DNA from: a virus
Taxonomy: Duplodnaviria > Heunggongvirae > Uroviricota > Caudoviricetes
Reading direction: 5' to 3' (one strand)
DNA: 57,747 nt
IMG/VR virus record: IMGVR_UViG_2917393062_000003
Span: 1 to 57,747 of that record
The notes below the pieces were generated by a model. It saw only the letters and a program-made list of their open reading frames with translations. It did no database searches and was not told the origin of the DNA. Below are positions 13,402 to 35,842 of this stretch, in pieces; the first letter of the stretch is position 1; each line of letters starts with the position of its first letter. A program made the position numbers and the translations under genes.

Positions 13402-13488
13402 CGTAATTACTAGTCCGGGGCTATATTTTCGACGCGCCAGCAAAATCTGGCGTCGGGATTGAGACCCCGGATGTTTACGGAGCGATAT

Positions 13489-13512
13489 GAGACGCGCCCG
13501 CGTCTTTTTTTT
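13489..13512 (+). terminator. rho-independent terminator ending the rightward early operon
   Basis: gagacgc-gccc-gcgtc followed by 8 T. Confidence 0.6.
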
Positions 13513-13675
13513 CATATCGTTTGCACAGTCATATTCGCGATTTATGGCGGGCTGTGTGGGGGAGCCGAAAGGCTCGCCGGTTTCCGTACCCGGTAGTCTC
13601 AACCCTGCACAGGTCGCCACCAGATGATTGAGACCAGAAGGTGGCGATAATGTCCAAATGTACGGAGTTATCGTT

Positions 13676-19636: not shown

Positions 19637-20179
19637 ATGACAAAAGACGAAATTTTTGATGCCGTTCTTGGTAAAGAGGGCGGTTACGTCAACCATCCGG
19701 ATGATAAAGGTGGGCCGACCAAATGGGGAATTACGGAAAAAGTCGCCCGTGCGCACGGATATCAGGGCGATATGCGTAACCTGACACGCGGGCAGGCGCT
19801 GGAAATACTCGAGGCGGATTACTGGTATGGCCCACGATTCGACCAGATTGCGAACCTGTCGCCGGATATTGCTGCAGAACTGTGCGACACGGGCGTGAAC
19901 ATGGGACCAACTGTGGCGTCCAGAATGCTTCAACGCTGGCTGAACGTTTTCAACCTGCGCGGGAAACTGTATCCGGATATGGATGCAGATGGACGCATCG
20001 GACCTCGTACCCTCAATGCGTTACGGGCATATCTGAAAAATCGTGGCAGGGATGGAGAGCTGGTAATGCTGACCGCGCTGAACTGTACGCAGGGTGACCG
20101 CTATCTGGAGCTGGCAGAGAAACGGGAGGCTAACGAGTCGTTTGTCTACGGCTGGATGAAAGAGCGTGTGGCTGTATGA
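19637..20179 (+). CDS. endolysin (GH108-type muramidase with C-terminal peptidoglycan-binding region)
   Basis: 180 aa; EGGYVNHPDDKGGPTKWGIT motif. Confidence 0.8.
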   Translation: MTKDEIFDAVLGKEGGYVNHPDDKGGPTKWGITEKVARAHGYQGDMRNLTRGQALEILEADYWYGPRFDQIANLSPDIAAELCDTGVNMGPTVASRMLQRWLNVFNLRGKLYPDMDADGRIGPRTLNALRAYLKNRGRDGELVMLTALNCTQGDRYLELAEKREANESFVYGWMKERVAV

Positions 20180-20358
20180 AGCGAAAACACTGGACACACA
20201 GAATGCCGAGAACGGCGGCGAAATGGGCACTGGTAGCGATATTAGCGCCTTTTTTATTGGTGGGATGCGTTAGCCTGGATAAGGCGCGCCAGCTTTTCGA
20301 TACAGCTTCTCAGGTCTGTGAAATTGTCGACGGTGTTCGGCAGTGTATGCAGAACTGA
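20176..20358 (+). CDS. small lipoprotein (possible o-spanin-like lysis accessory)
   Basis: signal peptide with lipobox LLVGC; ATGA overlap with endolysin stop. Confidence 0.4.
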   Translation: MKRKHWTHRMPRTAAKWALVAILAPFLLVGCVSLDKARQLFDTASQVCEIVDGVRQCMQN

Positions 20359-20529
20359 TCGCCTGTAATAGCAGAATATTTTGCTGAAAAATGAAGGGTG
20401 CGCCAGCGTCCGGAAAGCATGAAATTCTGTGTTTGTGGCTATTCAATAAAATAAATTCTTTCTGTCGCCGCGAATACTCAAATGTTGATCAGTGCCCGGT
20501 GCGGCGACGGGCTTCGATATCAGGAGACG

Positions 20530-20829
20530 ATGATGGAAAAAACAGAAAACAAACCGATTGTAATTGGTGCTGATGCTGCTCCGTTTAAGTTTGAGTTGTC
20601 TCAACTGGTGGAGATGCGCATCAGTGATGAATGGGGTGAGGTTAAAGCTCGCGCTCAGTATGCGGATGGCGAAAACCAGTACTTACTCCACTACAAAGCT
20701 GCTGATGGTCGCGCCACGACGGAGTGGTTTGGTGAGTCAATGCTGGAAGCAACAGAAGATGATCGCCATCCAGGTTGTCCGGTATTTGCCTGCATGAAAT
20801 TACCGGAAGGCGCAGTCGTTACTGAGTAA
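20530..20829 (+). CDS. hypothetical protein
   Basis: ATG 20530 with SD AGGAG. Confidence 0.45.
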   Translation: MMEKTENKPIVIGADAAPFKFELSQLVEMRISDEWGEVKARAQYADGENQYLLHYKAADGRATTEWFGESMLEATEDDRHPGCPVFACMKLPEGAVVTE

Positions 20830-20909
20830 CAGGCATTACAGCAGCCCTTCAGTGAGGGGCTGCGATAATGCTATCGGCCTGAATATCTCTATTGAAAACA
20901 GGAGGCGAA

Positions 20910-21197
20910 ATGTCTGAGCGAAACTATGAAGCGATTGGACGCTGCGTTGTTCTGAGAAAGCGCATTGAAGAAAATCTTTGCGCACTGCAGAAAATAAAAT
21001 CGGAAATTATTTCTGCTGAAGTTCCGTTTTTATTAGATTGGCGGTTGTGTGGTGGTTATTCACTGGTGTTGAGCGTAGAAGCGAATGCAAATCGCTGTCG
21101 TGAATTGCTTGATGAGACAATGCAACTGGTCAGTGAACATAATCAGCATGCAGTGGCGGCAGGACAGGATGCAATCTGTGTTATCCACAAGGGATAA
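20910..21197 (+). CDS. hypothetical protein
   Basis: ATG 20910 with SD AGGAGG. Confidence 0.45.
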   Translation: MSERNYEAIGRCVVLRKRIEENLCALQKIKSEIISAEVPFLLDWRLCGGYSLVLSVEANANRCRELLDETMQLVSEHNQHAVAAGQDAICVIHKG

Positions 21198-21205
21198 GCA
21201 CCTCC

Positions 21206-21556
21206 ATGCCATCACGAATCCCCCGCGCATGCCGTAAGCGAGGCTGTGCAGGCACAACGACGGACAGTTCTGGCTACTGCGATAAACATCGTGGTGAAGG
21301 ATGGACACAACACCAGCGCGGACTGAACCGCCACCAGCGCGGCTATGGCTCAAAATGGACGGTGATTCGTGCCCGTATTCTGAAGCGCGATAAAGGTCTG
21401 TGTCAGTTGTGTCTGCGTGTCGGTGTGGTGCGCGAGGCGAAAACTGTCGACCACATCATTCCGAAAGCGCATGGCGGAACAGACGCAGACAGCAACCTGC
21501 AGAGTCTGTGCTGGCCCTGCCACAAAGCGAAAACAGCGCGCGAACGAATCAGGTGA
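21206..21556 (+). CDS. HNH endonuclease (terminase-associated)
   Basis: 116 aa; Cys-rich CxxC pairs and HIIPKAHGG...N...CWPCH HNH motif; directly upstream of terS. Confidence 0.8.
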   Translation: MPSRIPRACRKRGCAGTTTDSSGYCDKHRGEGWTQHQRGLNRHQRGYGSKWTVIRARILKRDKGLCQLCLRVGVVREAKTVDHIIPKAHGGTDADSNLQSLCWPCHKAKTARERIR

Positions 21557-21702
21557 TAATTATTCTCACTTGTGGGGAGGGCGGGTCAAATCCCTGCAGC
21601 CCTGGCTGTCCGGGACCGCCCGCCAACCCTTCTTCGCATCGCCGCAGGTTCGAAAACTTTTTTTTGGGAATGCGATCAAACGATTGATAGGTAAAACCGA
21701 TT

Positions 21703-22185
21703 ATGTCAGGACCCCCGAAAACCCCGCCACGCCTGCATTTGATACGAGGCAACCCCTCAAAGCGCCCCGTTAAAGACCCAAAAAAAACCGCTAAAAAGGA
21801 TGAAAAAGGTCTCCCTAAAATTCCGCAACATTTAGGGTCGCAGGGGAAGTACTGGTTCAGGCGAATGGCGGAAGAACTGAATGCGGAAGGGATCATTTCT
21901 CAGCTTGATGCGCGTGCACTCGAGTTACTGGTGGAAGCCTACACCGAATACCGGCATCACTGCGAAACACTTGATGCTGAGGGTTATACCTACCGCACGG
22001 AAACGCAGAACGGTGATGTGCTGATTAAGGCACACCCGGCTGCTGCGATGAAAGCGGATGCCTGGAAGCGGATCCGGGCGATGCTTGCAGAGTTTGGTAT
22101 GTCACCGGCAAGCCGGGCGAAAGTAAATACCGCCGGATCGGATGATGTTGATCCGCTGGCGGAGCTTTTAAAAGCGAGAGACTGA
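21703..22185 (+). CDS. terminase small subunit
   Basis: 160 aa; paralogous to 36131-36487; directly upstream of terL. Confidence 0.7.
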   Translation: MSGPPKTPPRLHLIRGNPSKRPVKDPKKTAKKDEKGLPKIPQHLGSQGKYWFRRMAEELNAEGIISQLDARALELLVEAYTEYRHHCETLDAEGYTYRTETQNGDVLIKAHPAAAMKADAWKRIRAMLAEFGMSPASRAKVNTAGSDDVDPLAELLKARD

Positions 22186-23270
22186 TGGCAAAAGTGGCTG
22201 ACGGGATCCGCTACGCCGAACGTGTTGTTGCAGGAGAAATTGTCGCTGGCGAATTTGTCCGTCTGGCCTGCCAGCGTTTTCTTGATGATCTGAAGTACGG
22301 CGAAGAGCGGGGGATTTATTTCAGTGAACCCCGTGCGCAGCACATCCTGAATTTCTACAAATTTGTGCCCCATGTAAAAGGGGCGCTGGCAGGCCAGCCC
22401 ATTGAACTGATGGACTGGCATGTATTTATCCTCATTAATATTTTTGGTTTTGTCATTCCGCTGGTCAATGAAGAGACCGGGGAAGTTGTCATGCGCAGCG
22501 ATGGCAGCGGACGTCCGGTGATGGTGCGCCGGTTCCGGACGGCGTACAACGAAGTCGCCCGTAAAAACGCAAAATCAACCCTGTCATCGGGTATCGGCCT
22601 GTATATGACGGGGGCAGATGGTGAAGGCGGTGCTGAGGTGTATTCAGCCGCAACCACGCGTGACCAGGCCAGAATTGTGTTTGAAGACGCCAAAAATATG
22701 GTCAGAAAAGCCCGGTCGACACTCGGGCGGTTGTTTGATTTCAACAAGCTGGCGATTTACCAGGAGCAGAGCGCATCAAAATTTGAACCGCTTTCCTCGG
22801 ATGCAAACAACCTGGACGGTCTGAACATCCACTGCGCCATTATTGATGAGCTGCATGCTCATAAAACCCGTGACGTGTGGGACGTTCTGGAAACGGCAAC
22901 CGGTGCCCGTCTGCAGTCCCTTTTATTTGGCATCACCACGGCTGGCTTTAACAAGGAAGGGATTTGTTACGAGCAACGCGATTACGCCATCAAGGTATTG
23001 CGAGGCTATAACAGCGACGTGGAGGGCGCGGTAAAAGACGACTCCTACTTTGCAATTATTTACACGCTCGATGAGGGAGATGATCCGTTTGATGAAACGG
23101 TCTGGCAGAAAGCGAATCCCGGCCTGGGCATCTGTAAACGCTGGGATGATCTGCGTCGTCTGGCGAAAAAGGCGAAGGAGCAGGTCTCGGCACGGGTGAA
23201 TTTTTTCACGAAGAAAGTAACATCACGCCGTAACAGCAGTGCGGCCTGTCCTGATTTTTTTAGTAACTAA
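22185..23270 (+). pseudogene. terminase large subunit, N-terminal part, interrupted at about 23212 by the inserted element
   Basis: aligns with the first ~315 aa of the intact TerL at 36471-38132, then runs into 19 codons of element DNA and a stop. Confidence 0.8.
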
Positions 23271-23342
23271 ATGAAAGAAAAAGATTTTTTCTTTTTCGTC
23301 GTTTTTGTTTTTTCTGGATGGTTCTGGCTGTTTTCATCATTT

Positions 23343-23363
23343 GTGTATTGCACTGTGTATTGC
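23343..23363. repeat. 21-bp subterminal repeat (tandem TGTGTATTGC units), left copy; candidate integrase arm-type site
   Basis: GTGTATTGCACTGTGTATTGC here and GTGTATTGCGCTGTGTATTGC at 38553-38573, direct orientation. Confidence 0.5.
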
Positions 23364-23383
23364 AAAAACGGGTTATAAATCAC

Positions 23384-24607
23384 ATGGCGCTAAACAAACT
23401 GAGCGATAAAAAACTTCGTTCCCTGCTTGGGCGCAGGAGTGAGAGGCAGGAAACCATCGCTGATGGTAACGGGCTTTCGGTACGGGTCAGTAAATACGGA
23501 TGTGTTAGTTTTGTTTTCTTTTACAGACTGGCGGGAAGGGGAACCGCGCCCATCTGGCTGACACTTGGAAAATATCCTGATCTGAGTCTCAAATCAGCGA
23601 GAGAGATGCGCGATCAGTGTCGAACTTGGCTTGCGGAGGGCAGAGATCCACGGATTCAGATAAAAATTGAACGGGAAGCCACCTTGCAACCTGTTACCGT
23701 TCGTGAGGCACTTGAATACTGGCTTGATAATTATGCAATGGATAAGCGTAGGGGAGCAGAACATATCAGGCAGTGCTTTGGTAAACATATTTATCCGGTG
23801 ATTGGTCATGTACCACTTAGTGATTGCTCTATATCTATGTGGATCAAGTGTTTTGACAAAATAAAAAAAGTAGCACCTGTACAGGCCGGAGCTTTGTTGC
23901 GTATATCAAAACAGGCGCTTAAATTTTGTAGGGTAAGAAAATACGCGATTAGTCATGAAATTGATGATCTTGAGGTCTGTGATGTGGGAAAAAAGTCTGC
24001 GCGAAGAAGCAGGGTTTTAACAGATGATGAAATCAGAGATTTATGGCGAAGTATTAATACTGATTATGACAATCACGAATTATCATATGAAAACCGAATT
24101 ATTTTACGTTTCCTGGTAGTTTTTGGTTGTCGACTGTCAGAAGTATTACTGTCGTCCTGGGTAGAGTGGGATTTTGATAAGAAATTATGGCGCGTTCCCG
24201 CTGATCATAGCAAAAATGGCAGGGAAATAATCAGACCGATTCCTGATGGCATGTTTAACTGGTTAGTTACGTTAAAAAAAATAACAGGTAACAAAGAAAA
24301 TGTGATTGGGTTTGATATGCGTCAGTGTACGGCAAGCGTAACTATCGGTAAGACATGGAAAAGGATGAAACACTCGGAGAAATGGACGGCGCATGATATG
24401 CGAAGAGTGTTTGCCACAAAACTAAGTGATCATGGTTTTGAACATAATGTGGTTGAACAGTTGCTTGGGCACACATTAGGCGGTGTTGCCGGGGTTTATA
24501 ACAGAAGCCAGTATATGGACAGAAAAAAAGAAGCTATGAACTGGTGGTACGACTATCTGAATAAGCAAATTAGTGGTGACAGTAATGATTCAAATAGTTA
24601 CGCGTGA
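23384..24607 (+). CDS. P4-like tyrosine integrase (N-terminal arm-binding-type domain)
   Basis: about 408 aa from MALNKLSDKKLRSL; catalytic motifs RLSEV, HDMRRVFAT, GGVAGVYNRSQY. Confidence 0.85.
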   Translation: MALNKLSDKKLRSLLGRRSERQETIADGNGLSVRVSKYGCVSFVFFYRLAGRGTAPIWLTLGKYPDLSLKSAREMRDQCRTWLAEGRDPRIQIKIEREATLQPVTVREALEYWLDNYAMDKRRGAEHIRQCFGKHIYPVIGHVPLSDCSISMWIKCFDKIKKVAPVQAGALLRISKQALKFCRVRKYAISHEIDDLEVCDVGKKSARRSRVLTDDEIRDLWRSINTDYDNHELSYENRIILRFLVVFGCRLSEVLLSSWVEWDFDKKLWRVPADHSKNGREIIRPIPDGMFNWLVTLKKITGNKENVIGFDMRQCTASVTIGKTWKRMKHSEKWTAHDMRRVFATKLSDHGFEHNVVEQLLGHTLGGVAGVYNRSQYMDRKKEAMNWWYDYLNKQISGDSNDSNSYA

Positions 24608-24806
24608 AGAACTTGAAAATGATAAAACAATCGACAGGATGATTAAGGAAGATGAATGTGCATGGTTAACAGCTCTTGGCAGGAGACACAGAGCATTACT
24701 TGAAAAGGAAGGAAAATTTCCACGTAAAATATGTATTGGCCCACAAACAAAAGTCTGGCGCTTATCTGAGGTGCTGGAATGGGTAAAGGGTGAATGGAAA
24801 CCCTGA
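24585..24806 (+). CDS. AlpA-family regulator
   Basis: EGKFPRKICIGPQTKVWRLSEVLEWV pattern; start ambiguous (24573, 24585 or 24639). Confidence 0.6.
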   Translation: MIQIVTREELENDKTIDRMIKEDECAWLTALGRRHRALLEKEGKFPRKICIGPQTKVWRLSEVLEWVKGEWKP

Positions 24807-24830
24807 ACTAAATTAAATGAGATATAATCA

Positions 24831-24855
24831 ACCCGTCTTTTGGCGGGTTTTTTTA
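24831..24855 (+). terminator. intrinsic terminator-like hairpin abutting the second alpA-like gene
   Basis: acccgtc-tttt-ggcgggt followed by 7 T. Confidence 0.4.
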
Positions 24856-24869
24856 TAGGTGATATTTTT

Positions 24870-25148
24870 ATGCAAAAATTTATTTATCCTACACCCGAAG
24901 AACGCATTCAGATTCTGAAAGATCATGGCGAACCGTATGATCGCCGTATACGCGAACATGAGTGTGCCAATCGTACCGGGCTTTCAAGAAGCAGACGTTG
25001 GGTACTTGAACAGGAGGGAGCATTTCCTGCTCGTGCTCATTTAGGGAAAGTGTCTGTTTCCTGGTTGCTCTCTGATGTGCTCTGGTGGGTTATGCATCCG
25101 CCAGGAGTAAAGGAAGTAAACAGCCCATACAAAAACGCCAATAAGTAA
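24870..25148 (+). CDS. second AlpA-family regulator
   Basis: EQEGAFPARAHLGKVSVSWLLSDVLWWV pattern. Confidence 0.6.
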   Translation: MQKFIYPTPEERIQILKDHGEPYDRRIREHECANRTGLSRSRRWVLEQEGAFPARAHLGKVSVSWLLSDVLWWVMHPPGVKEVNSPYKNANK

Positions 25149-25158
25149 TTACCGACAA

Positions 25159-25186
25159 CCCCGCACCACGCAATGCGGGGTTTTTT
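25159..25186 (+). terminator. rho-independent terminator
   Basis: ccccgca-ccacgcaa-tgcgggg followed by 6 T. Confidence 0.65.
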
Positions 25187-25205
25187 GTATGTGAGGTAGA
25201 AAGTG

Positions 25206-25799
25206 ATGAATAAAAATATTGCCGCGACGGGCAAGGGTGACGCACGTCATATGAAAAAATTCTGTGATATTCGTGATCTGGTCGTTCTGCGCTTTGATAG
25301 TGTGAACGTTCGCGTGGTGTATCTGAACGGCGATCCGTGGTTTGTTGGCGCTGATGTGTGTGCGGCGCTGGAAATTAGCAACGTTACCGATGCTGTTTCA
25401 GTTCTGGATAGCGATGAGGTAATGACCCTAGCTTTAACCGAGGGTCATTCAGGTAAGCGTGGTGGTGCCAGAAGTTGGAATGTTGTATCAGAATCAGGTT
25501 TTTACAAGTTGATCGCCAGAAGTCGCAAAGCTGTTAATCCTAGCACGTTCGCCCATCGTTTCAGTAATTGGGTATTCAGAAATGTGATACCGGGTATCAG
25601 AAAAACGGGGGCTTATGGTATCCCGTGGGGCGCATTACAGGATTTTTCCCGCCGCAAAGAGCAATACCAGATAAGTGCCAGCGAGAAGGGGAGGGAGCTA
25701 CAGGCATGTAAGCGCAAAAAGCGTGAGCTGGAGGAAGAAGAAAAAAGGCTGATACGTGAATACCAGCCTGAGTTTTACTTTGGTGAGCGTATTCAGTAA
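25206..25799 (+). CDS. Bro-N domain protein (antirepressor-like)
   Basis: N-terminal Bro-N pattern FVGADVCAALEISNVTDAVS...FYKLIARS...FAHRFSNWV. Confidence 0.7.
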   Translation: MNKNIAATGKGDARHMKKFCDIRDLVVLRFDSVNVRVVYLNGDPWFVGADVCAALEISNVTDAVSVLDSDEVMTLALTEGHSGKRGGARSWNVVSESGFYKLIARSRKAVNPSTFAHRFSNWVFRNVIPGIRKTGAYGIPWGALQDFSRRKEQYQISASEKGRELQACKRKKRELEEEEKRLIREYQPEFYFGERIQ

Positions 25800-26449
25800 C
25801 CACACGCGGTGTTGATTATACGGTACATCGTGTTGACCGGGAAGCTACCCACCAGCAAGGCAAAATCTTCTGCTAAAAAATGACATATGACCAGTCGTCC
25901 GGAAAGCATGAAATTTTACAAAAATGGAAAATGAAGATTTTTATTGTGCTGGTGGGTAAAAACAAAAAGCGCCCCGTTACCGGAGCGCCATTGCGAACAA
26001 TTAACCTACTGCGCAAAAAATGAATCTGTGCGGGGGGATTATATCAACCGTGGTCGAAATGACCATAGTTGCAGGATAACAGGCAAAACAAAGGCCACCC
26101 GCTACGGTGGCCCCTCGACACAAGCTACACGTTATCCCCAACGCATGAGCATAACCAACAATGCCACATTTACGGCTGGTGGGCAAATCCTGAGCTGTTC
26201 TGTAATTACAGGAACTACGGCATTGTCGCGGTTAGGTTATGCTCAACTTTTTTTCAACTCTATATCGCAAGCACGCCGTAATATATCGCCTTCATTGCTT
26301 CCGCAAAGATTCTTTTTCTCGAAGCATGATTTTAAGATAAAGGCGGCGACAATTAGAACAATCGCACAGAGTGCACAATTTTTAAGTTTTGGCATCTTTT
26401 ACTCCTATGGTTGCCGCCGTGATTCCTCACACCACGGCGCTGATAGTAA

Positions 26450-26629
26450 TTATTCTGATTCTTTGGCCTTGCGGCGCTGGCGGCGTTTGATCTCGCCACG
26501 CATGGCTGTAACGATAAACTGCGCGTCTGTTTCGTTTTCCTCTTTGACCAAATTCATTTCGCTTAAAACTTCTAGAGGGATTCTAGCCGTTTTTTGTTGT
26601 GATTTGTTGTTGGTTGTACCCGTTGGCAT
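26450..26629 (-). CDS. small regulator, possibly ribbon-helix-helix type
   Basis: 59 aa from MPTGTTNNK; very strong SD AAGGAGG; divergent from the rightward operon. Confidence 0.45.
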   Translation of the reverse strand: MPTGTTNNKSQQKTARIPLEVLSEMNLVKEENETDAQFIVTAMRGEIKRRQRRKAKESE

Positions 26630-26691
26630 TACTAGCCTCCTTACTGTTAGGTGGCGTTCAGTATACGTAGAAAAAAAAAATAAAAAAAAGC

Positions 26692-26742
26692 TTGAAGTGC
26701 AAGTCACCTAAAAGTAGCATAATCCTCAAAGGTGACTTGCAC
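26692..26742 (+). promoter_or_regulatory. rightward promoter bracketed by a perfect 13-bp inverted repeat (operator)
   Basis: -35 TTGAAG, 17-nt spacer, -10 TAGCAT; inverted repeat GTGCAAGTCACCT (26697-26709) / AGGTGACTTGCAC (26730-26742); upstream A-tract. Confidence 0.5.
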
Positions 26743-26823
26743 CTTAAAGACAAAGCCCCGCAAGTGTCGTTACCACTCACAGGGCTTCTAACCACCAACG
26801 ATAACGAGAGTATCGAGGTAGCT

Positions 26824-27030
26824 ATGTTAAATCATACCACACACCCGCAAGGGCGGGACTCGCACAACCTGAATAAATATATCTGGCGTTTTATCGCTCT
26901 GAGCACGGCACAACCGCGCGTGATTACCATTGAGGCCACCAGTGAACAGGAAGCCTGTCAGCAATCACCGGCTGGCTGCGTGATGGTATTCGCCGCCCAT
27001 ATTCGTCAGGGGGTGCACCATGTGCAATAA
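26824..27030 (+). CDS. hypothetical small protein (satellite rightward operon gene 1)
   Basis: ATG 26824 with SD GAGG. Confidence 0.4.
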   Translation: MLNHTTHPQGRDSHNLNKYIWRFIALSTAQPRVITIEATSEQEACQQSPAGCVMVFAAHIRQGVHHVQ

Positions 27031-27256
27031 CACCCGTCCGGACTCAGCCGCCGAAGCTATCAGAACGCTAATGCACGCGCTGATTGATATTTCATGCACG
27101 GCAGCAACCGCAGAAAAACACATTACCAGAGAGACGGAATATGCAGGGGCGATAATCCCGCATTCGCTGGCATATGTGCAGCTTAGTGCCGACATGGCAC
27201 TGGATGAGGCAGGCAAAATTCTTACCGCAGATATCCAGGGGGGACGCCATGCATAA
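27020..27256 (+). CDS. hypothetical small protein
   Basis: overlapping, translationally coupled ORF. Confidence 0.4.
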   Translation: MCNNTRPDSAAEAIRTLMHALIDISCTAATAEKHITRETEYAGAIIPHSLAYVQLSADMALDEAGKILTADIQGGRHA

Positions 27257-27461
27257 TCATGAAGCGCACTTACCTGTAGTGCTGAATGTGCCATCAGATT
27301 ATACGGGGCGCGTACTGGTGTATCTGGAAAAAGGCCGGGTTAAATGCCAGTGCCGTTTAATGGAAAACGAATTTATCAGCACTCTTGCGGGATTTTCTGA
27401 AATGCTCACTAAATCTGGTGTTAGTGCAGACCAGTTACGCGGGGGCGATTATGCGAAATAA
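27249..27461 (+). CDS. hypothetical small protein
   Basis: ATG 27249 overlapping upstream stop. Confidence 0.4.
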   Translation: MHNHEAHLPVVLNVPSDYTGRVLVYLEKGRVKCQCRLMENEFISTLAGFSEMLTKSGVSADQLRGGDYAK

Positions 27462-27669
27462 ACGTGATATTGAAGACCTGGCATTTGAAGCCCTGCACTC
27501 TGCGAAAAAGATCAGGGAAGTCGTCAATATGTGGATGAACAGCCTTAGCACCGATGAATCCGATAGCAGAGAAGAAATTCTTATTTCTTTGTTGTTAGAC
27601 CTGGCAAATACACAGGTTTCTCTGACATCTGATATTGAGCTCGCCGCTAAAAAGCTGCCTCTGGAGTAA
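27451..27669 (+). CDS. hypothetical small protein
   Basis: ATG 27451 overlapping upstream stop. Confidence 0.4.
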   Translation: MRNKRDIEDLAFEALHSAKKIREVVNMWMNSLSTDESDSREEILISLLLDLANTQVSLTSDIELAAKKLPLE

Positions 27670-27799
27670 AAAAACATGAAAAAGAAAAAATTCTGGCTTT
27701 ACTGCCAGCGGTCACGCTCGGCCTGAAATCCGCCCCGGTGATATTTTCCGGGATAAATACGGCAGCACGATAACGATTAAAACTGTCGATGATTTTCGT

Positions 27800-27991
27800 G
27801 TGACCTATATCCGCGAAGGTTATGCGCATCCCTGCGTGTCGTCACATATGCGCTTTGACAGGGAGTTCACCTTGGTAAGCAAAGCACCACCAGCAGAATT
27901 AAGCGACATCGACAGAATCATGCGCGTTACAGGAATGGAACGCATTAAGGCAGTACGTGAAATTATTCGTGAACGGGGAAAGGCAAAATGA
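27800..27991 (+). CDS. hypothetical small protein (GTG start)
   Basis: 63-aa ORF ending in ATGA overlap with the replication gene; weak RBS. Confidence 0.25.
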   Translation: MTYIREGYAHPCVSSHMRFDREFTLVSKAPPAELSDIDRIMRVTGMERIKAVREIIRERGKAK

Positions 27992-30111
27992 AGCGCGCAC
28001 CAAACTTAAAGCACCAGCCAGCCGATAAAATGACGGAGGTTATCATCTTTGCGGGTAGTGATGCGTGGAGCCATGCGAAAGAGTGGCAGGAATGGGCAGG
28101 TAAGCATATTGCCGCCGACAATGTGCCGCCTGTCGTTCTGTCAGATGAACACCTGAAAGATATTACCGGTTATCAAATTATTGATGATAGTCGTCAGTGT
28201 GTGCGTGTTTACCGCGCAGGGCACATCACTGAACGTAGCCTTACACAGATCGTCACGTTGCTGGCTGTGGCTGGCGTGAAGACCGTATACGAATACGCGG
28301 GGATAACTGACACCAGCCCGGCGGATTTATCCGACCAGTTGCCTCGCCTCAAAGACGAATACGAGCGCGGGGAAAGTCTGGTGTTGCCCTTAAAGAAAAA
28401 AATCACAGAAAGCCCGGGTGATGATGAATTAAAGCCCCGCGTTGAAAGCCGCGCCGATGGTGTTTTCTGGGTAACGCCAAAAGTGGATAAGCAGTCAGGC
28501 GAAATTATCCGGCCTGAGACGTGGTTATGTTCCCCGCTTGAACTACTGGGAACGGGGACAATCGGTAAAGAGCATTACCGCGTGATGCGCTGGAAAAAAT
28601 TCGCAAATCATGAAGTCATCACAATGGCGGTTCCGTGCGGTGGCATTGGCGACCGTGACGGCTGGCGGCTGCTGAAAGACCACGGACTGAACGTAACAAC
28701 TAACGGCAAAAATAGGGCTATCCTGGCTGACTGGATGCAGTTAAGCGGAAGCCATGAGGAATGGCAGTTAAGCACAACAACGGGCTGGCATTTTGGCGCG
28801 TACATCATGCCGGACGGTTCGGTCATTGGTGATTGCGAAAAGCCAGTCCTGTTTACCGGAAAAACGGCTGCTGTTAATGGCTATTCCGTGGCAGGAACGG
28901 CGGAGGGTTGGCGCGATACCGTGGCGCGGCTGGCTGGTGGTAATCCGTCCATGATGCTGGGTGTGGCGGTATCGTTATCCGCACCATTAATCGGGCTGGT
29001 GGGTGCTGACGGCTTCGGGGTACATCTTTTCGAACAGTCATCGGCAGGGAAAACCACCACACAGAACATCGCATCCAGTTTATGGGGAGAGCCGGACGCA
29101 CAACGGCTGACCTGGTACGGCACGGCGTTAGGTATCGCCAACGAGGCCGAAGCACATAATGACGGGCTGTTACCCCTGGATGAAATAGGTCAGGCCGGAA
29201 ACGCGCGGGAGGTGTCCACGTCAGCCTATACGCTGTTTAACGGTTCCGGGAAATTACAGGGGGCAAAGGACGGCGGCAACAGGGAGATAAAACACTGGCG
29301 AACGGTGGCAATCAGTACCGGAGAAATGGACGTTGAAACATTCCTCAAAACGGAAGGGATAAAAGTCAAGGCGGGGCAGCTTGTCCGCCTGCTTAACGTG
29401 CCAATGGAAAAAGCCACACAATTTCACGAATACAGCACCGGAAAGGCACACGCAGACGCGTTAAAGGATGCCTGGACAGAAAATCACGGGGCGGCGGGGC
29501 GTGAATGGGTTAAATGGTTGGCAGACCATCAGCAGGAGGCAAAGGACACGGTAAGGGCATGCCGTGAACGGTGGCGCAACCTGATACCGGAGAGCTACGG
29601 CGAGCAGGTACACCGCGTGGGTGAGCGTTTCGCCATACTGGAGGCCGCGCTTGTGCTTTCCGGTCATGTTACTGGCTGGGATGTTCAGGCGTGCCGCGAT
29701 GCCATACAGCATAATTTTTATGCCTGGGTGAAGGAGTTCGGCACGGGTAACAGGGAGTTTAAACAGATGGTTGAACAGGCAGAGGCTTTTTTAGCGTCGT
29801 TCGGATTCAGCAGATACCTTCCGTGGCCCAACACCGACGAGCGTGATTTACCGATTAAAGAGCTTGCCGGATACAGAAAGGGGAGTATCAGAAACGAAGA
29901 TGACGAGTTCCGTTTTTACACGTTCCCGCATGTATTTGAGGGTGAGATAGCACAGGGATTTAATCCGTCTCACTTTGCCCGCGCGTTGAGTGCTGCCGGA
30001 ATGCTGGAAGCGGGTAACGATCGCCGTTACAAGAAAAAGGCGCTCGGCAAAATTGGGGGGAAGCAGCATGTTTTTTACGTGCTGATGTTCCAGCCTGAGG
30101 CAGAAGATTAA
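27988..30111 (+). CDS. satellite replication protein with P-loop NTPase (DUF927-like primase/helicase class)
   Basis: 707 aa; Walker A SSAGKTT; iterons immediately downstream; family name from memory. Confidence 0.6.
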   Translation: MKRAPNLKHQPADKMTEVIIFAGSDAWSHAKEWQEWAGKHIAADNVPPVVLSDEHLKDITGYQIIDDSRQCVRVYRAGHITERSLTQIVTLLAVAGVKTVYEYAGITDTSPADLSDQLPRLKDEYERGESLVLPLKKKITESPGDDELKPRVESRADGVFWVTPKVDKQSGEIIRPETWLCSPLELLGTGTIGKEHYRVMRWKKFANHEVITMAVPCGGIGDRDGWRLLKDHGLNVTTNGKNRAILADWMQLSGSHEEWQLSTTTGWHFGAYIMPDGSVIGDCEKPVLFTGKTAAVNGYSVAGTAEGWRDTVARLAGGNPSMMLGVAVSLSAPLIGLVGADGFGVHLFEQSSAGKTTTQNIASSLWGEPDAQRLTWYGTALGIANEAEAHNDGLLPLDEIGQAGNAREVSTSAYTLFNGSGKLQGAKDGGNREIKHWRTVAISTGEMDVETFLKTEGIKVKAGQLVRLLNVPMEKATQFHEYSTGKAHADALKDAWTENHGAAGREWVKWLADHQQEAKDTVRACRERWRNLIPESYGEQVHRVGERFAILEAALVLSGHVTGWDVQACRDAIQHNFYAWVKEFGTGNREFKQMVEQAEAFLASFGFSRYLPWPNTDERDLPIKELAGYRKGSIRNEDDEFRFYTFPHVFEGEIAQGFNPSHFARALSAAGMLEAGNDRRYKKKALGKIGGKQHVFYVLMFQPEAED

Positions 30112-30132
30112 CCCCTGTGTGAGGTGAAAAGT

Positions 30133-30257
30133 TGCGGGTTATGCGGGTTATCCTGTGTATAAGTGCATTAACTGTATGAATAAAAAGGAAATCAATAACC
30201 CGCACGTAACCCGCAAAACGGCAGTTATAACCCGCAAAAGTGCGATTATAACCCGCA
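30133..30257. repeat. iteron cluster (TAACCCGCA units in both orientations), candidate replication origin
   Basis: two inverted-orientation units at 30133-30150 and four direct units between 30196 and 30257. Confidence 0.6.
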
Positions 30258-30320
30258 GAATTTCACCGTAAGGGTGTAAACAAGCGTAACAATCAACGTT
30301 AAAACCGGAGAACAGACAGC

Positions 30321-30743
30321 ATGACAGCACAGATAGCAGCTTACGGGCGGCTGGTGGCTGACCCGCAGTTAAAGACCACCAGCAAAGGGACACAAATGGC
30401 GATGGCGAGTATGGCAGTTCCCCTGCCGTGCAGCCAGGCAGATGACGGAACGGCGACGATGTGGTTATCCGTCCTGGCGTTTGGCAGACAGGCCGACGCA
30501 CTGGCAAAACACCACAAAGGCGAACTGGTGAGCGTGGCGGGTAACATGCAGGTAAGCCAGTGGACAGGTCAGAACGGCGAAATGCGGCAGGGTTGGCAGG
30601 TCATCGCAGACAGCGTAATCAGTGCGCGAACGGCGCGACCGGGCGGCAAAAAAGGCCAGCAGGGCCAGGCTACTGACGCACTGAACAGGGCAAAACAACA
30701 GGCGGGGAATGATGATCCGTACGGGGACGGGATACCGTTTTAA
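30321..30743 (+). CDS. SSB-like OB-fold protein with acidic C-terminal DGIPF tip
   Basis: 140 aa; Gly/Gln-rich linker and C-terminal DDPYGDGIPF resembling the SSB DDDIPF tail. Confidence 0.55.
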   Translation: MTAQIAAYGRLVADPQLKTTSKGTQMAMASMAVPLPCSQADDGTATMWLSVLAFGRQADALAKHHKGELVSVAGNMQVSQWTGQNGEMRQGWQVIADSVISARTARPGGKKGQQGQATDALNRAKQQAGNDDPYGDGIPF

Positions 30744-30758
30744 GCAGTGAGGTACAGC

Positions 30759-31040
30759 ATGATTAAAGACAGCAAAGCGGAAGAACTGGAGGCTAAAGGG
30801 CTGTACCGGAGAGCGGCGGCGCGTTGGGCTGATGTTATGTGGCTGGTGAGCACTGACAAGGAGCGCGAACAGGTGGCAAAGCGTCGCGCGGAATGTATCC
30901 GTAAGGCAGCGCGCCAACCAGTCATACCGGATAATTTCGGAATACTGAAAGAGGCCATAAACCGCACACATACCGGGATGGGCTTACAGAAACCTGGCGG
31001 TGAGATGTTCAGGAACTACCCGAAAAAAAAGGATAATTGA
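30759..31040 (+). CDS. PerC-like regulator (tentative)
   Basis: MIKDSKAEELEAKGLYRRAAARWADVM; family assignment from memory. Confidence 0.4.
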   Translation: MIKDSKAEELEAKGLYRRAAARWADVMWLVSTDKEREQVAKRRAECIRKAARQPVIPDNFGILKEAINRTHTGMGLQKPGGEMFRNYPKKKDN

Positions 31041-31085
31041 TAACGGTTGTTAACTGTTTCTGGTATCGTGGCAGCAGGAGGAAAC

Positions 31086-31334
31086 ATGCCAGTGACATTT
31101 GAAGAAGTCCAGCAACATAAAAAGCTTCATGATTTTGATGATCTGGAAACCACGACAGTAAAAAAATATCGCCGGCTGCTTTCTTCCGATGCGTTATTTT
31201 TTGTGGATCATCATGATTTTCTGCGTAGCTCACTGACCGGGGAAATTTTCGCAACCAACCGTGAGCAGGTGGAAGCGATGATCGAATATCTGTGGAAAAT
31301 AAGGCGCAGAATGCGTGATCCCGTGAAACGGTAG
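31086..31334 (+). CDS. hypothetical protein
   Basis: ATG 31086 with SD AGGAGG. Confidence 0.45.
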   Translation: MPVTFEEVQQHKKLHDFDDLETTTVKKYRRLLSSDALFFVDHHDFLRSSLTGEIFATNREQVEAMIEYLWKIRRRMRDPVKR

Positions 31335-31343
31335 AATAATAAT

Positions 31344-31372
31344 GGCCTGGTATTTTCCAGGCCATTTTTTTT
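31344..31372. terminator. rho-independent terminator between convergent genes
   Basis: ggcctgg-tatttt-ccaggcc followed by 8 T. Confidence 0.65.
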
Positions 31373-31844
31373 AGAAGTCGATCTCTGTATCGCGATTAAA
31401 TTCATCGCTAAGGTAAAGTGCTTCGCTTGGGCATTTTCCGTTTTCCAGTAATGTTTCCCAGAAATCTTTATCGAAACACCCCTCAAGATACAGATAGCGG
31501 CAGATGTGAAGTAAATCACTTCGTGTCCATCCGTGCATGCTGCTACTTGTTACACCATATTCACTTTCTAGTTTATAGAATGTGAGCGCCTCCCGGTCGT
31601 GCCAGGCTTTGCACAGACGATCGTATATCTTTTTAGCTTTGTTTTTAGATGTGCCGAAAAACTCTTCGTAAATTTCATGTGGGCGAGCAGGAATACTTCC
31701 GTCGCCATCCTGCAAGAAAGGATAAACATCTGCCTCCCAGGCATACACGTAAGAATCGCTGAACTCATCATAGTGTTTACCAAGGTGGAGAATCTGCAAT
31801 CGTTGCTGAATGAACATTGCTTTTTTCAGTTCATTTTCTGACAT
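31371..31844 (-). CDS. opposite-strand cargo protein of unknown function (candidate accessory or defence gene)
   Basis: 157 aa; only minus-strand gene in the satellite core; noticeably lower GC than neighbours; own upstream region. Confidence 0.55.
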   Translation of the reverse strand: MSENELKKAMFIQQRLQILHLGKHYDEFSDSYVYAWEADVYPFLQDGDGSIPARPHEIYEEFFGTSKNKAKKIYDRLCKAWHDREALTFYKLESEYGVTSSSMHGWTRSDLLHICRYLYLEGCFDKDFWETLLENGKCPSEALYLSDEFNRDTEIDF

Positions 31845-32138
31845 AGTTCGTTCCTCCTGATTGACGAGCAGAAAATGTACGGAACAGCTTATTTATTTTT
31901 TCAGGTTTTGTAAATTATTTGTTCGTGGTTGTTCCAGGTTGTTCGGTGATTCTGGCTGATGTTTACATACTGATTTTTATGTATATGTTGGCGTGTGGCA
32001 CTCAGACGTGAGCCGCCACAATGCCGCCTGACCCCCTGCGCGATGCCGGGTTGATCTGCGAGATGCCGGGAGTGTCGGGCGGCGCTCCCTCCGTGTTGGT
32101 TTCACGTCCTGAATCTTAACCAATACGAGAAAACCTTC

Positions 32139-33284
32139 ATGAAGAAATTAATCGAACTCCGCCAGCAAAAAACCGCCCTGAAAAACCAGATGCGATCCCT
32201 GCTGGAAAAAGCCGACAGTGAAAACCGCAGCCTGAACGATGACGAGGGCAAACAGTTTGATGAACTGCGTGCAAAAGCCGATTCCCTCGACACAGAAATT
32301 TCCCGTCTTGAAGCTGTTGCGGATGAAGAACGTAACCAGCCAGGTGTTTCCGTCGAAGAGAAAATCACCAAAGACGAACTGCGCTCTTACATTCTGACCG
32401 GGGAAACCCGCAACCTGTCCGGCAGTGTCCCGGCTGATGGTGGTTATACGGTTATCCCGGAACTGAACAGAGAAATTATGCGTCAGCTTTCTGATGAATC
32501 GGTGATGCGTAAAATCTGTACCGTTAAAACCATTCACAGCAATGAATTTAAGCAACTGGTTTCTGCCGGGGGTGCGGTCGTTGAACACGGCGAAGAAGGT
32601 GCGGCACGTAACCAGACGGCAACACCAAAACTGAATGAAGTCAGTATCCGCCTGTATCCGATCTACGCTTACCCGAAAACCACTCAGGAAATTATCGATT
32701 TTTCCGAAGTCGATATTATGGGCTGGTTATCTTCTGAAATTGGCGACACTTTCGTTGATACCGAAGAAATGGATCTGGTTTCTGGTGATGGCGAGAAAAA
32801 AGCTAAAGGTTTCCTGGCTTTTCCGCGCACTGCGGATAACGACAAAACCCGTCCTTTCGGTACGCTCCAGACGAAAAAAGTTACTGGCAGTCTCAGCGCC
32901 GACATGCTGATTGACCTGAAATTTACGCTGCGCAATAAGTACCGCAAAAAAGCTGTATGGGTGATGAACTCAAATACAGCCGCCTCCGCACAAAAACTGA
33001 AAAATGCCACTGGTGATTACATCTGGCGCGATCGTTTACAGGCTGGTGATCCTGATTCTCTGCTGGGGCTTCCGGTTGAATATCTGGAATTTATGCCGGA
33101 CGGTGTGATTGCAGTAGGTGACTTTAAGCGCGGTTATTTCATCGTTGACCATGAAACCGGTACGCGTACCCGTCCGGATTTCAGCGAACCCGGATTCATT
33201 AACATCTATACCCAGAAATATCTGGGCGGTGGTGTGGTGGATTCGAACGCCATCAAGATTCTGGAAATTCAGGCTGGCAAGTAA
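32139..33284 (+). CDS. HK97-family major capsid protein (satellite)
   Basis: 381 aa; paralogous in architecture to prophage MCP at 41463-42686. Confidence 0.8.
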   Translation: MKKLIELRQQKTALKNQMRSLLEKADSENRSLNDDEGKQFDELRAKADSLDTEISRLEAVADEERNQPGVSVEEKITKDELRSYILTGETRNLSGSVPADGGYTVIPELNREIMRQLSDESVMRKICTVKTIHSNEFKQLVSAGGAVVEHGEEGAARNQTATPKLNEVSIRLYPIYAYPKTTQEIIDFSEVDIMGWLSSEIGDTFVDTEEMDLVSGDGEKKAKGFLAFPRTADNDKTRPFGTLQTKKVTGSLSADMLIDLKFTLRNKYRKKAVWVMNSNTAASAQKLKNATGDYIWRDRLQAGDPDSLLGLPVEYLEFMPDGVIAVGDFKRGYFIVDHETGTRTRPDFSEPGFINIYTQKYLGGGVVDSNAIKILEIQAGK

Positions 33285-33333
33285 TGAGCAAAGGGGGCTT
33301 CGGCCTCCTTTTTCAGCTTTATGGAGTACACCG

Positions 33334-33894
33334 ATGAAAAATACCGATTTTGAAATCCGTACATCTGAACTGACCGCCAGTGATAAAAAACTGGTGGGTT
33401 ATGCCGTTCGCTGGAACAGCCTTTCAGAAATTATCTGGGACGAATTCCGCGAACAGTTTACGCCGGGGGCTTTTGCTGACTATCTGGCGGCGGGTAATGA
33501 TGTGCGCTGCCTGTATGAGCATGACTATACCCGACTGCTGGGGCGCACCAAATCCGGAACACTGGTACTGACTGAGGACAACACCGGGCTACGTTTTGAA
33601 CTGACACCGCCTGATACCCAGCTTGGAAAAGATGTGCTTACGCTGGTGGAGCGTGGCGACATTACAGGAATGAGCTTTGGCTTTCGCGCATTATGCGAAG
33701 AATGGAATATCGCGCAAAAACCGTATCTGCGCACTGTTACCGCCGCAGAACTTCGTGAAATCACGATAACGTCAATGCCTGCTTATCCCGAATCTGGCGT
33801 GGAGATTGCCCGCCGTTCGTTGTTTGCACAGCACCCTGAATTACGCCCGACAGGAAATAATCGTCATCGCTGGGCTGAACTGGCGGGGTTGTGA
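33334..33894 (+). CDS. HK97-family prohead protease (satellite)
   Basis: about 186 aa from MKNTDFEIR with SD GGAG; paralog of 40798-41448. Confidence 0.75.
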   Translation: MKNTDFEIRTSELTASDKKLVGYAVRWNSLSEIIWDEFREQFTPGAFADYLAAGNDVRCLYEHDYTRLLGRTKSGTLVLTEDNTGLRFELTPPDTQLGKDVLTLVERGDITGMSFGFRALCEEWNIAQKPYLRTVTAAELREITITSMPAYPESGVEIARRSLFAQHPELRPTGNNRHRWAELAGL

Positions 33895-33895
33895 T

Positions 33896-35110: not shown

Positions 35111-35402
35111 AGAAAAAATTACACCTGATGAGGTCAGGGCACATCTTCGCCTTGATAACTTCTACGATGAAGGCGAACTTCTGAAAATGTATACCGATGC
35201 GGCGCTGGAAGCCTGCCAGAAGCATATCGGGAAACGTTTTGAAGACGGGCTGGAATTTACCCCGGCAATACGTGTTGGTTGCCTGATGTACATTGCTTTC
35301 CTGTACGAGAACAGGGAAGCGGTTTCACCTGTGGAGCAGTCTGAACTGCCTATGGCTATTTCTGCGCTCTGGTCGGTTTATCGTGATGTAGGGGTGTACT
35401 GA
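35103..35402 (+). CDS. head-tail connector (gp6-like) protein (satellite)
   Basis: 99 aa; HLRLDNFYDEGELLK pattern shared with prophage 42733-43056. Confidence 0.65.
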   Translation: MSEEKITPDEVRAHLRLDNFYDEGELLKMYTDAALEACQKHIGKRFEDGLEFTPAIRVGCLMYIAFLYENREAVSPVEQSELPMAISALWSVYRDVGVY

Positions 35403-35842
35403 TGCCGTGGCAACCATTAAGGCGATGCACTGAGCCGGGCTGTAATAAGCGCGTGAAGTCCGGCAAGTGCGAAGATCACAGGCGGGCTGCATGGCGTGCA
35501 GAGGATGCCAGACGGGGACACCGCCGCGCGCGCGGGTATTCCCGACAGTGGGACAAATACCGCGCCCTGTACCTGAGCAAAAACCCGTTATGCGTGCGTT
35601 GTCTGGCTAAGGGGATTTATACGCCAGCTCTTGTGGTGGATCACATCATTCCCATCAATGGCGGCGGTGATGTTCTCTTCTGGCCTGAGTGGAATCACCA
35701 GGCATTGTGCCAGACGTGCCACAACCGTAAGACGACACGGGAAGATCCAGCCACGAAAGCGAACCGTAAGGCGGGCATGTATCGCGAGCAGGAAGAACGG
35801 GCGGCACATCGTAACGACTGGATGTATGGCGATGATGACTGA
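35402..35842 (+). CDS. HNH endonuclease (satellite, terminase-associated)
   Basis: 146 aa; Cys-rich, VDHIIPINGGG...CQTCHNRKT motif. Confidence 0.8.
   Translation: MPWQPLRRCTEPGCNKRVKSGKCEDHRRAAWRAEDARRGHRRARGYSRQWDKYRALYLSKNPLCVRCLAKGIYTPALVVDHIIPINGGGDVLFWPEWNHQALCQTCHNRKTTREDPATKANRKAGMYREQEERAAHRNDWMYGDDD

Follow-up and report, generated by a model that had tools for sequence, protein, structure and literature searches.

A widespread and seemingly undescribed 60-nt imperfect palindrome in non-coding DNA of Escherichia coli prophages and satellites

Why do a prophage and a satellite carry the same short sequence, the former behind its lysis genes and the latter behind a gene for a Bro-N domain protein? 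The window in which the two copies occur (the whole stretch of DNA analysed, 57,747 nt of the Caudoviricetes record IMGVR_UViG_2917393062_000003) contains exact matches to GTCCGGAAAGCATGAAATT at 20408-20426 and 25897-25915, both on the plus strand, as the sequence-only reading had stated; allowing up to 3 mismatches adds no further match in the window, and 100 dinucleotide shuffles gave none. The identity extends over 20 nt rather than 19 nt because the preceding C is common to both copies (20407-20426 and 25896-25915). The wider similarity around this core, initially described as a stretch of about 45 nt with about 80% identity, is real, but its extent and identity had to be revised: the two copies form a gap-free unit of 60 nt, 20371-20430 and 25860-25919, with 44 of the 60 positions identical (73%, counted by hand). 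The flanks of the copies resemble each other no more than shuffled sequence does (local alignment, p=0.38 upstream and p=0.14 downstream). The placement after the lysis genes and after the Bro-N gene also holds. Copy A starts 12 nt past the stop codon of an Rz1-like lipoprotein ORF, the last ORF of a phiP27-like lysis cassette that ends in 19637-20358, and copy B starts 60 nt past the stop codon of the Bro-N ORF. The features are the following (element types are described below).

19637-20179, plus strand: GH108/PG_binding_3 endolysin gene upstream of copy A, part of the 19637-20358 context
20176-20358, plus strand: Rz1-like lipoprotein ORF (60 aa) upstream of copy A
20371-20430, plus strand: copy A, type II element, 60 nt (nhmmer, 67 bits, E=1e-18); 5' to 3', GCAGAATATTTTGCT GAAAAATGA AGGGTGCGCCAGCGTCC GGAA AGCATGAAATTCTGT
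20371-20385, plus strand: 5' arm of copy A (alignment columns 7-21), inverted repeat of 20416-20430
20395-20411, plus strand: hypervariable centre of copy A (alignment columns 31-47)
20407-20426, plus strand: 20-nt core of copy A, an exact match to that of copy B
20416-20430, plus strand: 3' arm of copy A (alignment columns 52-66)
25203-25799, plus strand: satellite Bro-N domain gene upstream of copy B
25800-26080, no strand assigned: accessory stretch of the satellite, consisting of the 60-nt spacer, the element and a candidate minus-strand small transcription unit
25860-25919, plus strand: copy B, type III element, 60 nt (nhmmer, 49 bits, E=5e-13); 5' to 3', GCAAAATCTTCTGCT AAAAAATGA CATATGACCAGTCGTCC GGAA AGCATGAAATTTTAC
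25860-25874, plus strand: 5' arm of copy B
25896-25915, plus strand: 20-nt core of copy B, an exact match to that of copy A
25905-25919, plus strand: 3' arm of copy B

The core of copy A takes in the GGAA loop together with the right margin of the variable centre and the greater part of the 3' arm. A profile scan of the window detected no half-sites beyond the two copies, and each cassette carries a single copy.

The two copies are members of one family of 59-60-nt imperfect palindromes that is found in temperate phages of Escherichia and in satellites, is confined to Escherichia phage and satellite DNA, and is matched in about 1,734 of 5,426 complete E. coli genomes (roughly a third). The motif search in related prophages and satellites that had been proposed at the outset yielded 127 pattern hits in viral contigs. 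These are not randomly placed: three contexts can be told apart, in which the element keeps a constant distance of 0, 12 or 60 nt to the preceding stop codon. Type I, the largest group, lies directly past the stop codon of the SAR lysozyme gene R in lambdoid and Stx phages (in the latter, between R and Rz), and was found at this position in all 79 usable loci that were picked by the R protein alone. Type II, which includes copy A, lies 12 nt past the phiP27-type gene for the Rz1-like lipoprotein, and type III, which includes copy B, 60 nt past the Bro-N gene of capsid-encoding PICI-like satellites. In all three contexts the element has the orientation of the upstream gene, at whose 3' edge it sits, and in hundreds of lambdoid, Stx and phiP27-like prophages it follows the lysis genes. 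This 60-nt imperfect palindrome is a widespread and apparently so far undescribed non-coding element of E. coli prophages and satellites.

The boundaries of the element are exact and it does not encode a protein. On the plus strand, the ATG is replaced by ATA or followed by other codons in relatives, or ATGA is changed to ATGC; the frame stops at codon 9 in type I copies, substitutions affect all codon positions, and the minus-strand frame is broken by a stop in copy B. The earlier observation that the surrounding codons are not conserved is confirmed, and the motif does not lie within conserved small protein genes. The interpretation of the sequence as a DNA or RNA site rather than a coding constraint is further upheld by the conservation of the arms, which far exceeds that of synonymous sites in the adjacent gene. 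The comparison of mean pairwise identity was made in an unbiased set of type I loci, chosen by the R protein (n=79 usable). In this set, the 5' arm reaches 0.978 and the 3' part 0.970, whereas the 51 fourfold sites of R give 0.809 and the stretch 80-100 nt downstream gives 0.806; identity in the centre is 0.704, below that at the fourfold sites. The ordering is the same in type II (3' part, 0.938; codon position 3, 0.870; centre, 0.809). Central regions that are unrelated in sequence are often GC-rich palindromes, in keeping with the hairpin discussed below. The length of the element is fixed, at 60 nt in 77 of 79 unique copies. In short, purifying selection acts on the arms, which are inverted repeats, while the centre between them is hypervariable.

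The similarity between loci stops at the 3' edge of the element: the 40 nt downstream fall into 8 clusters, and the downstream genes into at least 18 clusters of unrelated genes. A short conserved sequence at the junction of unrelated modules is what the boundary ("linker") sequences described at lambdoid module junctions are (Susskind and Botstein, 1978; Clark et al., 2001; both as cited in PMC3029335), and the element could be a homology patch of this kind that joins the lysis module or the Bro-N gene to interchangeable modules and has no further function. Apart from the published precedent, this explanation draws on the exact location at module junctions with their diverse continuations, on the restriction of the family to the one recombining gene pool of Escherichia, and on two loci: one (L120) with a type I copy and a decayed type II copy on a spanin remnant, the other (L024) with a PerC moron between one full and one partial copy of the element. 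However, a neutral patch should evolve like synonymous sites, and the arms (0.97-0.98) and the centre (0.70) depart from the neutral level (0.81) in opposite directions, which rejects a pure homology patch evolving as neutral DNA; neither the split between arms and centre nor the constant length and the inverted-repeat symmetry is expected from homology alone. A boundary sequence without additional function is accordingly unlikely.

The best available explanation, which is favoured tentatively, is that the element is a cis-acting hairpin in the 3' region of the transcript that affects mRNA processing or stability. In the transcript of the upstream gene the element would form the tail, either 3' untranslated or intercistronic, and pairing of the arms GCAGAAUAUUUUGCU and AGCAUGAAAUUCUG would produce a long, irregular hairpin whose internal loop is asymmetric (GAAAAAUGA opposite GGAA) and whose tip evolves freely. 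Such a hairpin could serve as a signal for mRNA processing or for protection of the 3' end and would set the expression of the upstream gene regardless of the accessory DNA that is recombined in downstream; the satellite copy would do the same local job for Bro-N. Satellite and prophage would then have the element in common as members of a single recombining gene pool, and the element would not be a link between them. Three points of this reading are inferences: the element works as RNA and not as DNA, its arms are paired in vivo, and what it changes is processing or stability.

Several observations on folding are consistent with such a hairpin. Across the alignment, 89% of cells are paired in the arms, a share that drops to 33-47% once the partners are slid. 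On the plus strand, the helix is paired at 99% in type II and 94% in type III, and the type II plus strand folds into the arm-paired structure with a mean z of -2.7 (76% of sequences below -2). In the 5' arm of type III, the change G10A is compensated by C63T and the other two changes fall on the two unpaired positions. A U-G pair between columns 16 and 57 is kept in 60 of 61 sequences, and for this reason the plus-strand RNA is favoured. In copy A the centre can form a GGGUGC/GCGUCC stem with a GCCA loop; such a central hairpin is present in some variants only (mean z = -0.54). The covariation score itself was reached by none of 500 shuffles. The more robust measures of covariation are not significant (4 double-change pairs against 4.5 expected; 19 further pair types against 16.7), RNAalifold does not recover the arm helix, and pairing within types is no better than in column shuffles (p = 0.8-1.0). 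Because covariation is weak, the cis-acting RNA hairpin is unproven.

Type I, moreover, has two A-C mismatches in the helix (paired at 84% on the plus and 90% on the minus strand) and folds no better than shuffled sequence on either strand (z of about -0.3), and pair-breaking variants are common, such as GAAGAAT in Sakai Sp5. Since type I pairs poorly, the conservation of the arms looks, at least in part, sequence-specific, as would also be expected of a protein-binding or DNA site. Such a site would be double-stranded, with the arms bound at fixed spacing across a free spacer by a host or phage protein, for instance a nucleoid protein, a regulator or a recombinase. The constant total length with a hypervariable centre agrees with this arrangement, and so does the dyad symmetry, which scores about equally on the two strands when types are pooled. 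Yet the three contexts share no candidate gene for a binding protein, no promoter that could be regulated is nearby, only one copy is present per cassette with no extra half-sites in the window, and in none of the three contexts does the orientation relative to the upstream gene vary. A double-stranded DNA site is for these reasons rather doubtful.

The 3' location also brings to mind a small RNA released from the 3' UTR of the upstream gene, with the element as its conserved 5' (seed) part. Of 82 unique type I loci, 55 have a strong intrinsic terminator about 121 nt past the element's start (a type III variant has one at about +147), and, as read by eye, block 1 contains an AU-rich AUAUU of the kind cut by RNase E, a putative cleavage site. 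Against such an RNA, there is no plus-strand terminator after copies A and B in the window and none after most type II copies, there is no promoter within the 3' end of R, and uninduced Sakai has no listed orphan Hfq-bound RNA or peak at the copies in Sp5, Sp9, Sp10 and Sp12. Taken together, the small RNA is improbable. For the proposed cis-acting hairpin, the type I and type III terminators agree with a 3' UTR setting, while the missing terminators in the window and the missing Hfq-bound RNA and Rfam family count against it. Neither copy is itself a recognisable transcription signal: no intrinsic terminator (a GC-rich hairpin followed by a U tract) and no sigma-70 promoter (-35/-10 hexamers) overlaps copy A or B. 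In Rfam 15, no covariance model matches either copy at the gathering score. At E<=10, the only model to overlap the element is RalA, a weak chance match with 10.6 bits (gathering score, 170) that touches only the final 8 nt of copy B.

Even less probable is that the element is a docking hairpin for gene-cassette exchange, an attC-like analogue for temperate phages and satellites. A recombination enzyme would recognise the arms, possibly on single-stranded DNA, while the centre could vary freely and the 3' edge would be the point where new accessory genes are attached; this would explain the many unrelated genes right after the element as well as its sharing by satellite and prophage. The element is not an integron attC: its ends are GCAGAAT and ATTCTG(C), without core boxes, and the neighbouring gene clusters include no integron integrase. 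It is not an attachment site of the satellite either. The junctions of the island are near 23210 and 38650, inside terL, and away from both copies, with copy A about 2.8 kb outside the island and copy B about 2.6 kb inside. Near the island ends, another repeat, GTGTATTGC, occurs twice.

A packaging site common to helper and satellite was rejected as well. Copy A is about 1.3 kb upstream of terS, with two genes between, copy B is about 10 kb from the satellite terS, and type I copies sit between R and Rz, not beside terS. The annotated cos of phiP27 lies between the HNH gene and terS in a region that is conserved in this prophage, and the HNH-terS spacer of the satellite does not align with it.

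The sequence-only reading had suggested that the satellite senses activation of its helper through the element, as a shared regulatory site. Such a site, DNA or RNA, could for example bind a late factor of the helper. The 3' half of copy B is indeed nearer to type II than to type I (20 nt identical), and the satellite resides in a prophage with phiP27-type packaging genes, a pairing that recurs in another locus (L106). The element is, however, not specific to the helper-satellite pair, because hundreds of lambdoid, Stx and phiP27-like prophages carry it: it lies behind the lysis genes of several phage types in about one in three E. coli genomes. Among 80 loci with related Bro-N genes, 35 have the accessory stretch of about 280 nt that holds the element and 45 lack it. 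A satellite segment with 99.7% identity was found in a different prophage, in which a profile scan of a 16-kb stretch detected no second copy. Furthermore, the element is located 3' of genes and not at promoters, and it has no complementarity to the small RNAs of the window. Helper sensing is unsupported, scarcely credible, and not worth pursuing on present evidence.

If the element acts in cis on RNA, it would be a common, so far unannotated signal that sets lysis-gene expression in E. coli prophages, Shiga-toxin prophages among them, whatever accessory genes are inserted behind these genes, and it might be usable as a portable insulator. If it is a recombination site, it would explain how lambdoid phages gain accessory genes at a well-known hot spot. 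Either way, the element is a precise marker of the end of the lysis module and of phage-satellite exchange.

The element can be compared with five known systems. Satellites such as P4 and the cos-type PICIs carry the cos site of the helper, and the element is likewise short, non-coding and common to prophage and satellite, but it is not adjacent to terS and in Stx phages is placed between R and Rz. The intergenic palindromic repeats of enterobacteria (REP/BIME, ERIC and BoxC) are also imperfect palindromes in transcribed intergenic regions past stop codons, with a proposed role in mRNA stability; the element has no sequence similarity to them and, unlike them, is limited to Escherichia phage and satellite DNA, once per cassette and at a fixed position. 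The attC sites of integrons (59-base elements) are delimited by the core boxes RYYYAAC and GTTRRRY (R'' and R') and are linked to the IntI integrase. They resemble the element in size, imperfect palindromy, conserved outer boxes, variable centre, location at the 3' ends of genes and a junction with variable DNA at the outer edge, whereas the element lacks core boxes (its ends are GCAGAAT and ATTCTGC) and a linked IntI-type integrase, is fixed in length, and occurs as a single copy per locus rather than in arrays. RNase III processing hairpins separate genes in polycistronic phage mRNAs, as in the R1.1-type signals of T7 and in lambda sib. They resemble the hairpin predicted here, which would be irregular, span about 60 nt and have its lower and upper stems separated by an asymmetric internal loop, and the element is also intergenic, co-oriented with transcription and on the 3' side of a cistron; it differs in that its helix is poorly kept in type I, its covariation is not significant and there is no sequence similarity. 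Finally, like the boundary sequences of lambdoid phages, the element is a short conserved patch with mosaic flanks, between a conserved module and interchangeable neighbours, that is common to otherwise unrelated genomes of one recombining pool; unlike them, it has constrained inverted arms around a hypervariable centre of fixed length.

The 19-nt sequence described in the sequence-only reading as common to the prophage and the satellite was found on the plus strand at both positions, 20408-20426 and 25897-25915, with no further match at three or fewer mismatches in the window and none in shuffled sequence. The identical run extends to 20 nt (20407-20426 and 25896-25915) and belongs to a gap-free 60-nt unit with 44 of 60 positions identical between the copies. 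Because the flanks (120 nt per side) match only at the shuffled level (p=0.38 and 0.14), the similarity forms a sharply bounded island. The features concerned are the following (types as defined below).

Features of the window
20371-20430, plus strand: copy A of the element, type II, 12 nt after the stop of the Rz1-like lipoprotein ORF
25860-25919, plus strand: copy B of the element, type III, 60 nt after the Bro-N stop
19637-20179: GH108 endolysin
20176-20358: 60-aa Rz1-like lipoprotein ORF, the last ORF of the lysis cassette
22185-23270 and 38651-39385: pieces of the interrupted terL, with the satellite island (about 23213-38650) between them

The prophage part of the window resembles phiP27, to which it is 96% identical in the region that follows the lysis genes, and includes, in this order, two candidate holin ORFs (assigned by position and the phiP27 annotation), the GH108 endolysin, the Rz1-like lipoprotein ORF, copy A, a small ORF, HNH, a P27-family TerS and TerL. 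The 60-aa lipoprotein (20176-20358) has the lipobox LVGC and its relatives are annotated as Rz1 family; no obvious Rz-like partner ORF was seen around it. TerL is split, residues 8-293 of phiP27 TerL aligning to 22209-23132 and residues 319-570 to 38651-39382, and the 15.4-kb satellite island lies inside this large terminase gene. The island codes for an integrase, two AlpA-family proteins, Bro-N (followed by copy B), a DUF927 primase-like protein, SSB and PerC, along with its own capsid, protease, portal, HNH, TerS and TerL, a gene content that matches the capsid-forming PICI type of satellite. A near-identical satellite resides within terL of another prophage (NZ_CP016546), and satellite excision might restore terL, tying helper packaging to excision. 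Just within each island end there is a 21-nt direct repeat of two GTGTATTGC units (23343-23363 and 38553-38573), which may represent integrase arm-type binding sites, and a short TTYTCACGAA motif is found at both terL junctions.

Elsewhere in the window, two pairs of isrK and C4 antisense RNAs in opposite orientations (1001-1183, minus strand; 13434-13624, plus strand) are matched at the Rfam gathering level, which suggests two P1/Gifsy-type immunity or anti-Q regions within the first 14 kb. On the minus strand, a promoter-like TGGTCA-16-TATAAT with a TG extension (26065-26038) is followed by a strong terminator (25989-25968), an arrangement (25960-26065) that, judged from sequence, suggests a putative small RNA about 50-60 nt long. 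More than 200 E. coli genomes retain the stretch 25957-26100, frequently in the absence of Bro-N or of the element.

A degenerate pattern of the left block matches at least 120 viral contigs. The 127 copies in the window and the collected loci fall into three types, each with a fixed offset from, and the same orientation as, the upstream gene.

Types of the element
Type I: after the 177-aa SAR lysozyme R, 0 nt from the stop; lambdoid and Stx phages; no copy in the window
Type II: after the phiP27-type Rz1-like lipoprotein, 12 nt from the stop; phiP27-like prophages; copy A
Type III: after the satellite Bro-N, 60 nt from the stop; capsid-encoding PICI-like satellites; copy B

In a set of loci picked by the R protein only, the element was located immediately 3' of the stop in all 79 usable cases. 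Of 5,426 complete E. coli genomes, 1,734 gave BLAST matches to it, with ~2,300 copies in total, and so did 315 phage records, among them phiP27, H-19B and many Stx phages; in prophage Sp5 of E. coli Sakai, it follows ECs_1213. When each species was represented by one genome and scanned with a strict pattern that diverged copies may escape, only an Escherichia sp. and a single chance hit in an archaeal MAG came up, so that the family seems restricted to phages of Escherichia. The K-12 prophage Qin lacks the element because rzpQ overlaps rrrQ there, and K-12 transcriptome data are therefore uninformative on it. A record named Actinobacillus phage vB_Apl-pPE4 (PP818812.1) matches the stretch with copy A at 100% over 67 nt (window 20363-20429) and is 95% identical to this E. 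coli prophage region over 248 nt, which makes its host assignment unexpected. The element is apparently undescribed: no Rfam family matches it, a search by sequence string did not find it in the papers covered, and one by Sakai and EDL933 locus tags gave nothing relevant.

Identity at and around the element (type I rows: mean pairwise, unbiased set, 62 unique sequences)
5' arm (type I): 0.978
3' part (type I): 0.970
Left loop (type I): 0.891
Centre, 17 nt (type I): 0.704
Fourfold sites of R, 51 sites: 0.809
80-100 nt downstream (type I): 0.806

Since the arms lie far above the fourfold sites of R and the centre below them, the arms are under purifying selection and the centre evolves at or above the neutral rate. 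The regions rank identically in type II, and the length is fixed, at 60 nt in 77 of 79 unique copies. The centre (alignment columns 31-47; 20395-20411 and 25884-25900), more variable than fourfold-degenerate sites, often contains GC-rich palindromes that differ in sequence from one variant to another (CGTTGGCCAACG, GCGTGGCCACGC, GGGCGC..GCGCCC, CATATG); quasi-palindrome template-switch mutation or diversifying selection could account for this variability. The initial proposal that the site is non-coding holds, given that variation among relatives breaks small ORFs on both strands: on the plus strand, relatives have ATA for ATG or ATGC for ATGA, type I stops at codon 9 and substitutions hit every codon position, and copy B interrupts the minus-strand frame. 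The element is real, selectively conserved and non-coding, and its role is likely to be an ordinary one.

Several known kinds of site were rejected. The phiP27 annotation puts cos between HNH and terS, a region kept in this prophage, and the HNH-terS spacer of the satellite is unrelated on alignment, which disposes of a shared cos; the island junctions lie within terL, near 23210 and 38650, and accordingly the element is not the satellite att site.

The arms are inverted repeats that would form a long hairpin, with an internal loop GAAAAAUGA opposite GGAA and a small apical stem; pairing holds in 89% of cells vs 33-47% with the partners slid. For type II, this hairpin is the minimum-free-energy fold of the plus strand (mean z = -2.7), and the changes that set the type III arms apart are compensated or fall at unpaired positions. 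Robust covariation measures across the family are not significant, no covariation was found inside each type, and RNAalifold did not recover the helix. Type I folds at the shuffled level, with two A-C mismatches, so that conservation of its arms looks partly sequence-specific. A conserved central (apical) hairpin was rejected because only some variants have one.

We tentatively favor, with less than even confidence, a hairpin that would act in cis, near the 3' end of the upstream gene's transcript, on the processing or stability of that transcript. This reading accounts for the co-orientation, the post-stop position, the combination of conserved arms and a free tip, and the presence of terminators after many type I copies; at copies A and B, no promoter or terminator was found.

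The similarity stops at the 3' edge of the element, the following 40 nt forming 8 clusters and the downstream genes, among them Rz, Ant, HNH, ParB-like and methylase genes, at least 18 clusters unrelated to one another. That the element is a passive recombination boundary is an unlikely alternative. Recombination does happen at or around the element, which is compatible with all readings. In locus L024, a moron of the PerC family (2640-3420, minus strand), with a homologue in the satellite (window 30747-31040), has a full element on its left side and, on the right, a 65-nt spanin-gene fragment joined at a GCGCCAGC microhomology to the element's 3' half. The lambdoid phage locus L120 combines a type I copy after R (1511-1570) with a decayed type II copy 1.9 kb downstream (3402-3458), just upstream of terS, where what is left of the phiP27-type spanin gene still adjoins it. 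Somewhat less probable again is a DNA site recognised by a protein or recombinase, which would fit the partly sequence-specific type I arms.

A small RNA derived from the 3'UTR is more doubtful still: no Hfq orphan peak was detected at the element in uninduced Sakai. Complementarity of the element to the satellite candidate small RNA or to the isrK/C4 RNAs of the window is not significant (|z|<2).

The proposal that the satellite senses its helper through this site is very improbable given the accessory status of the element in satellites, a different prophage with a 99.7%-identical satellite segment in terL where a profile scan of a 16-kb stretch detected no second copy, the wide spread in phages without a satellite, and the 3'-of-gene position. 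Among 80 loci picked by the Bro-N protein, 35 have the spacer with the element at +61 and 45 lack the ~280-nt stretch that holds it, hence the accessory status. Bro-N has no close phage homologue (the best is 55% identical at the amino acid level) and the flanks are unrelated; therefore, the element did not hitch-hike with a phage Bro gene. That prophage and satellite both have it reflects the gene pool common to them, not a demonstrated functional link.

Among known small RNAs of such phages, AsxR, AgvB and Pas are located upstream of the holin, not after R. EcOnc10-12, strong Hfq-bound orphan peaks (Tree et al., 2014) in Sakai Sp10, Sp9 and Sp12 (loci L289, L290 and L291), map after Rz, between it and a small hypothetical gene in convergent orientation (ECs_1967, ECs_1788 and ECs_2255), and hence are not the element; their location is another conserved non-coding site where the lysis region ends, separate from the one described here.
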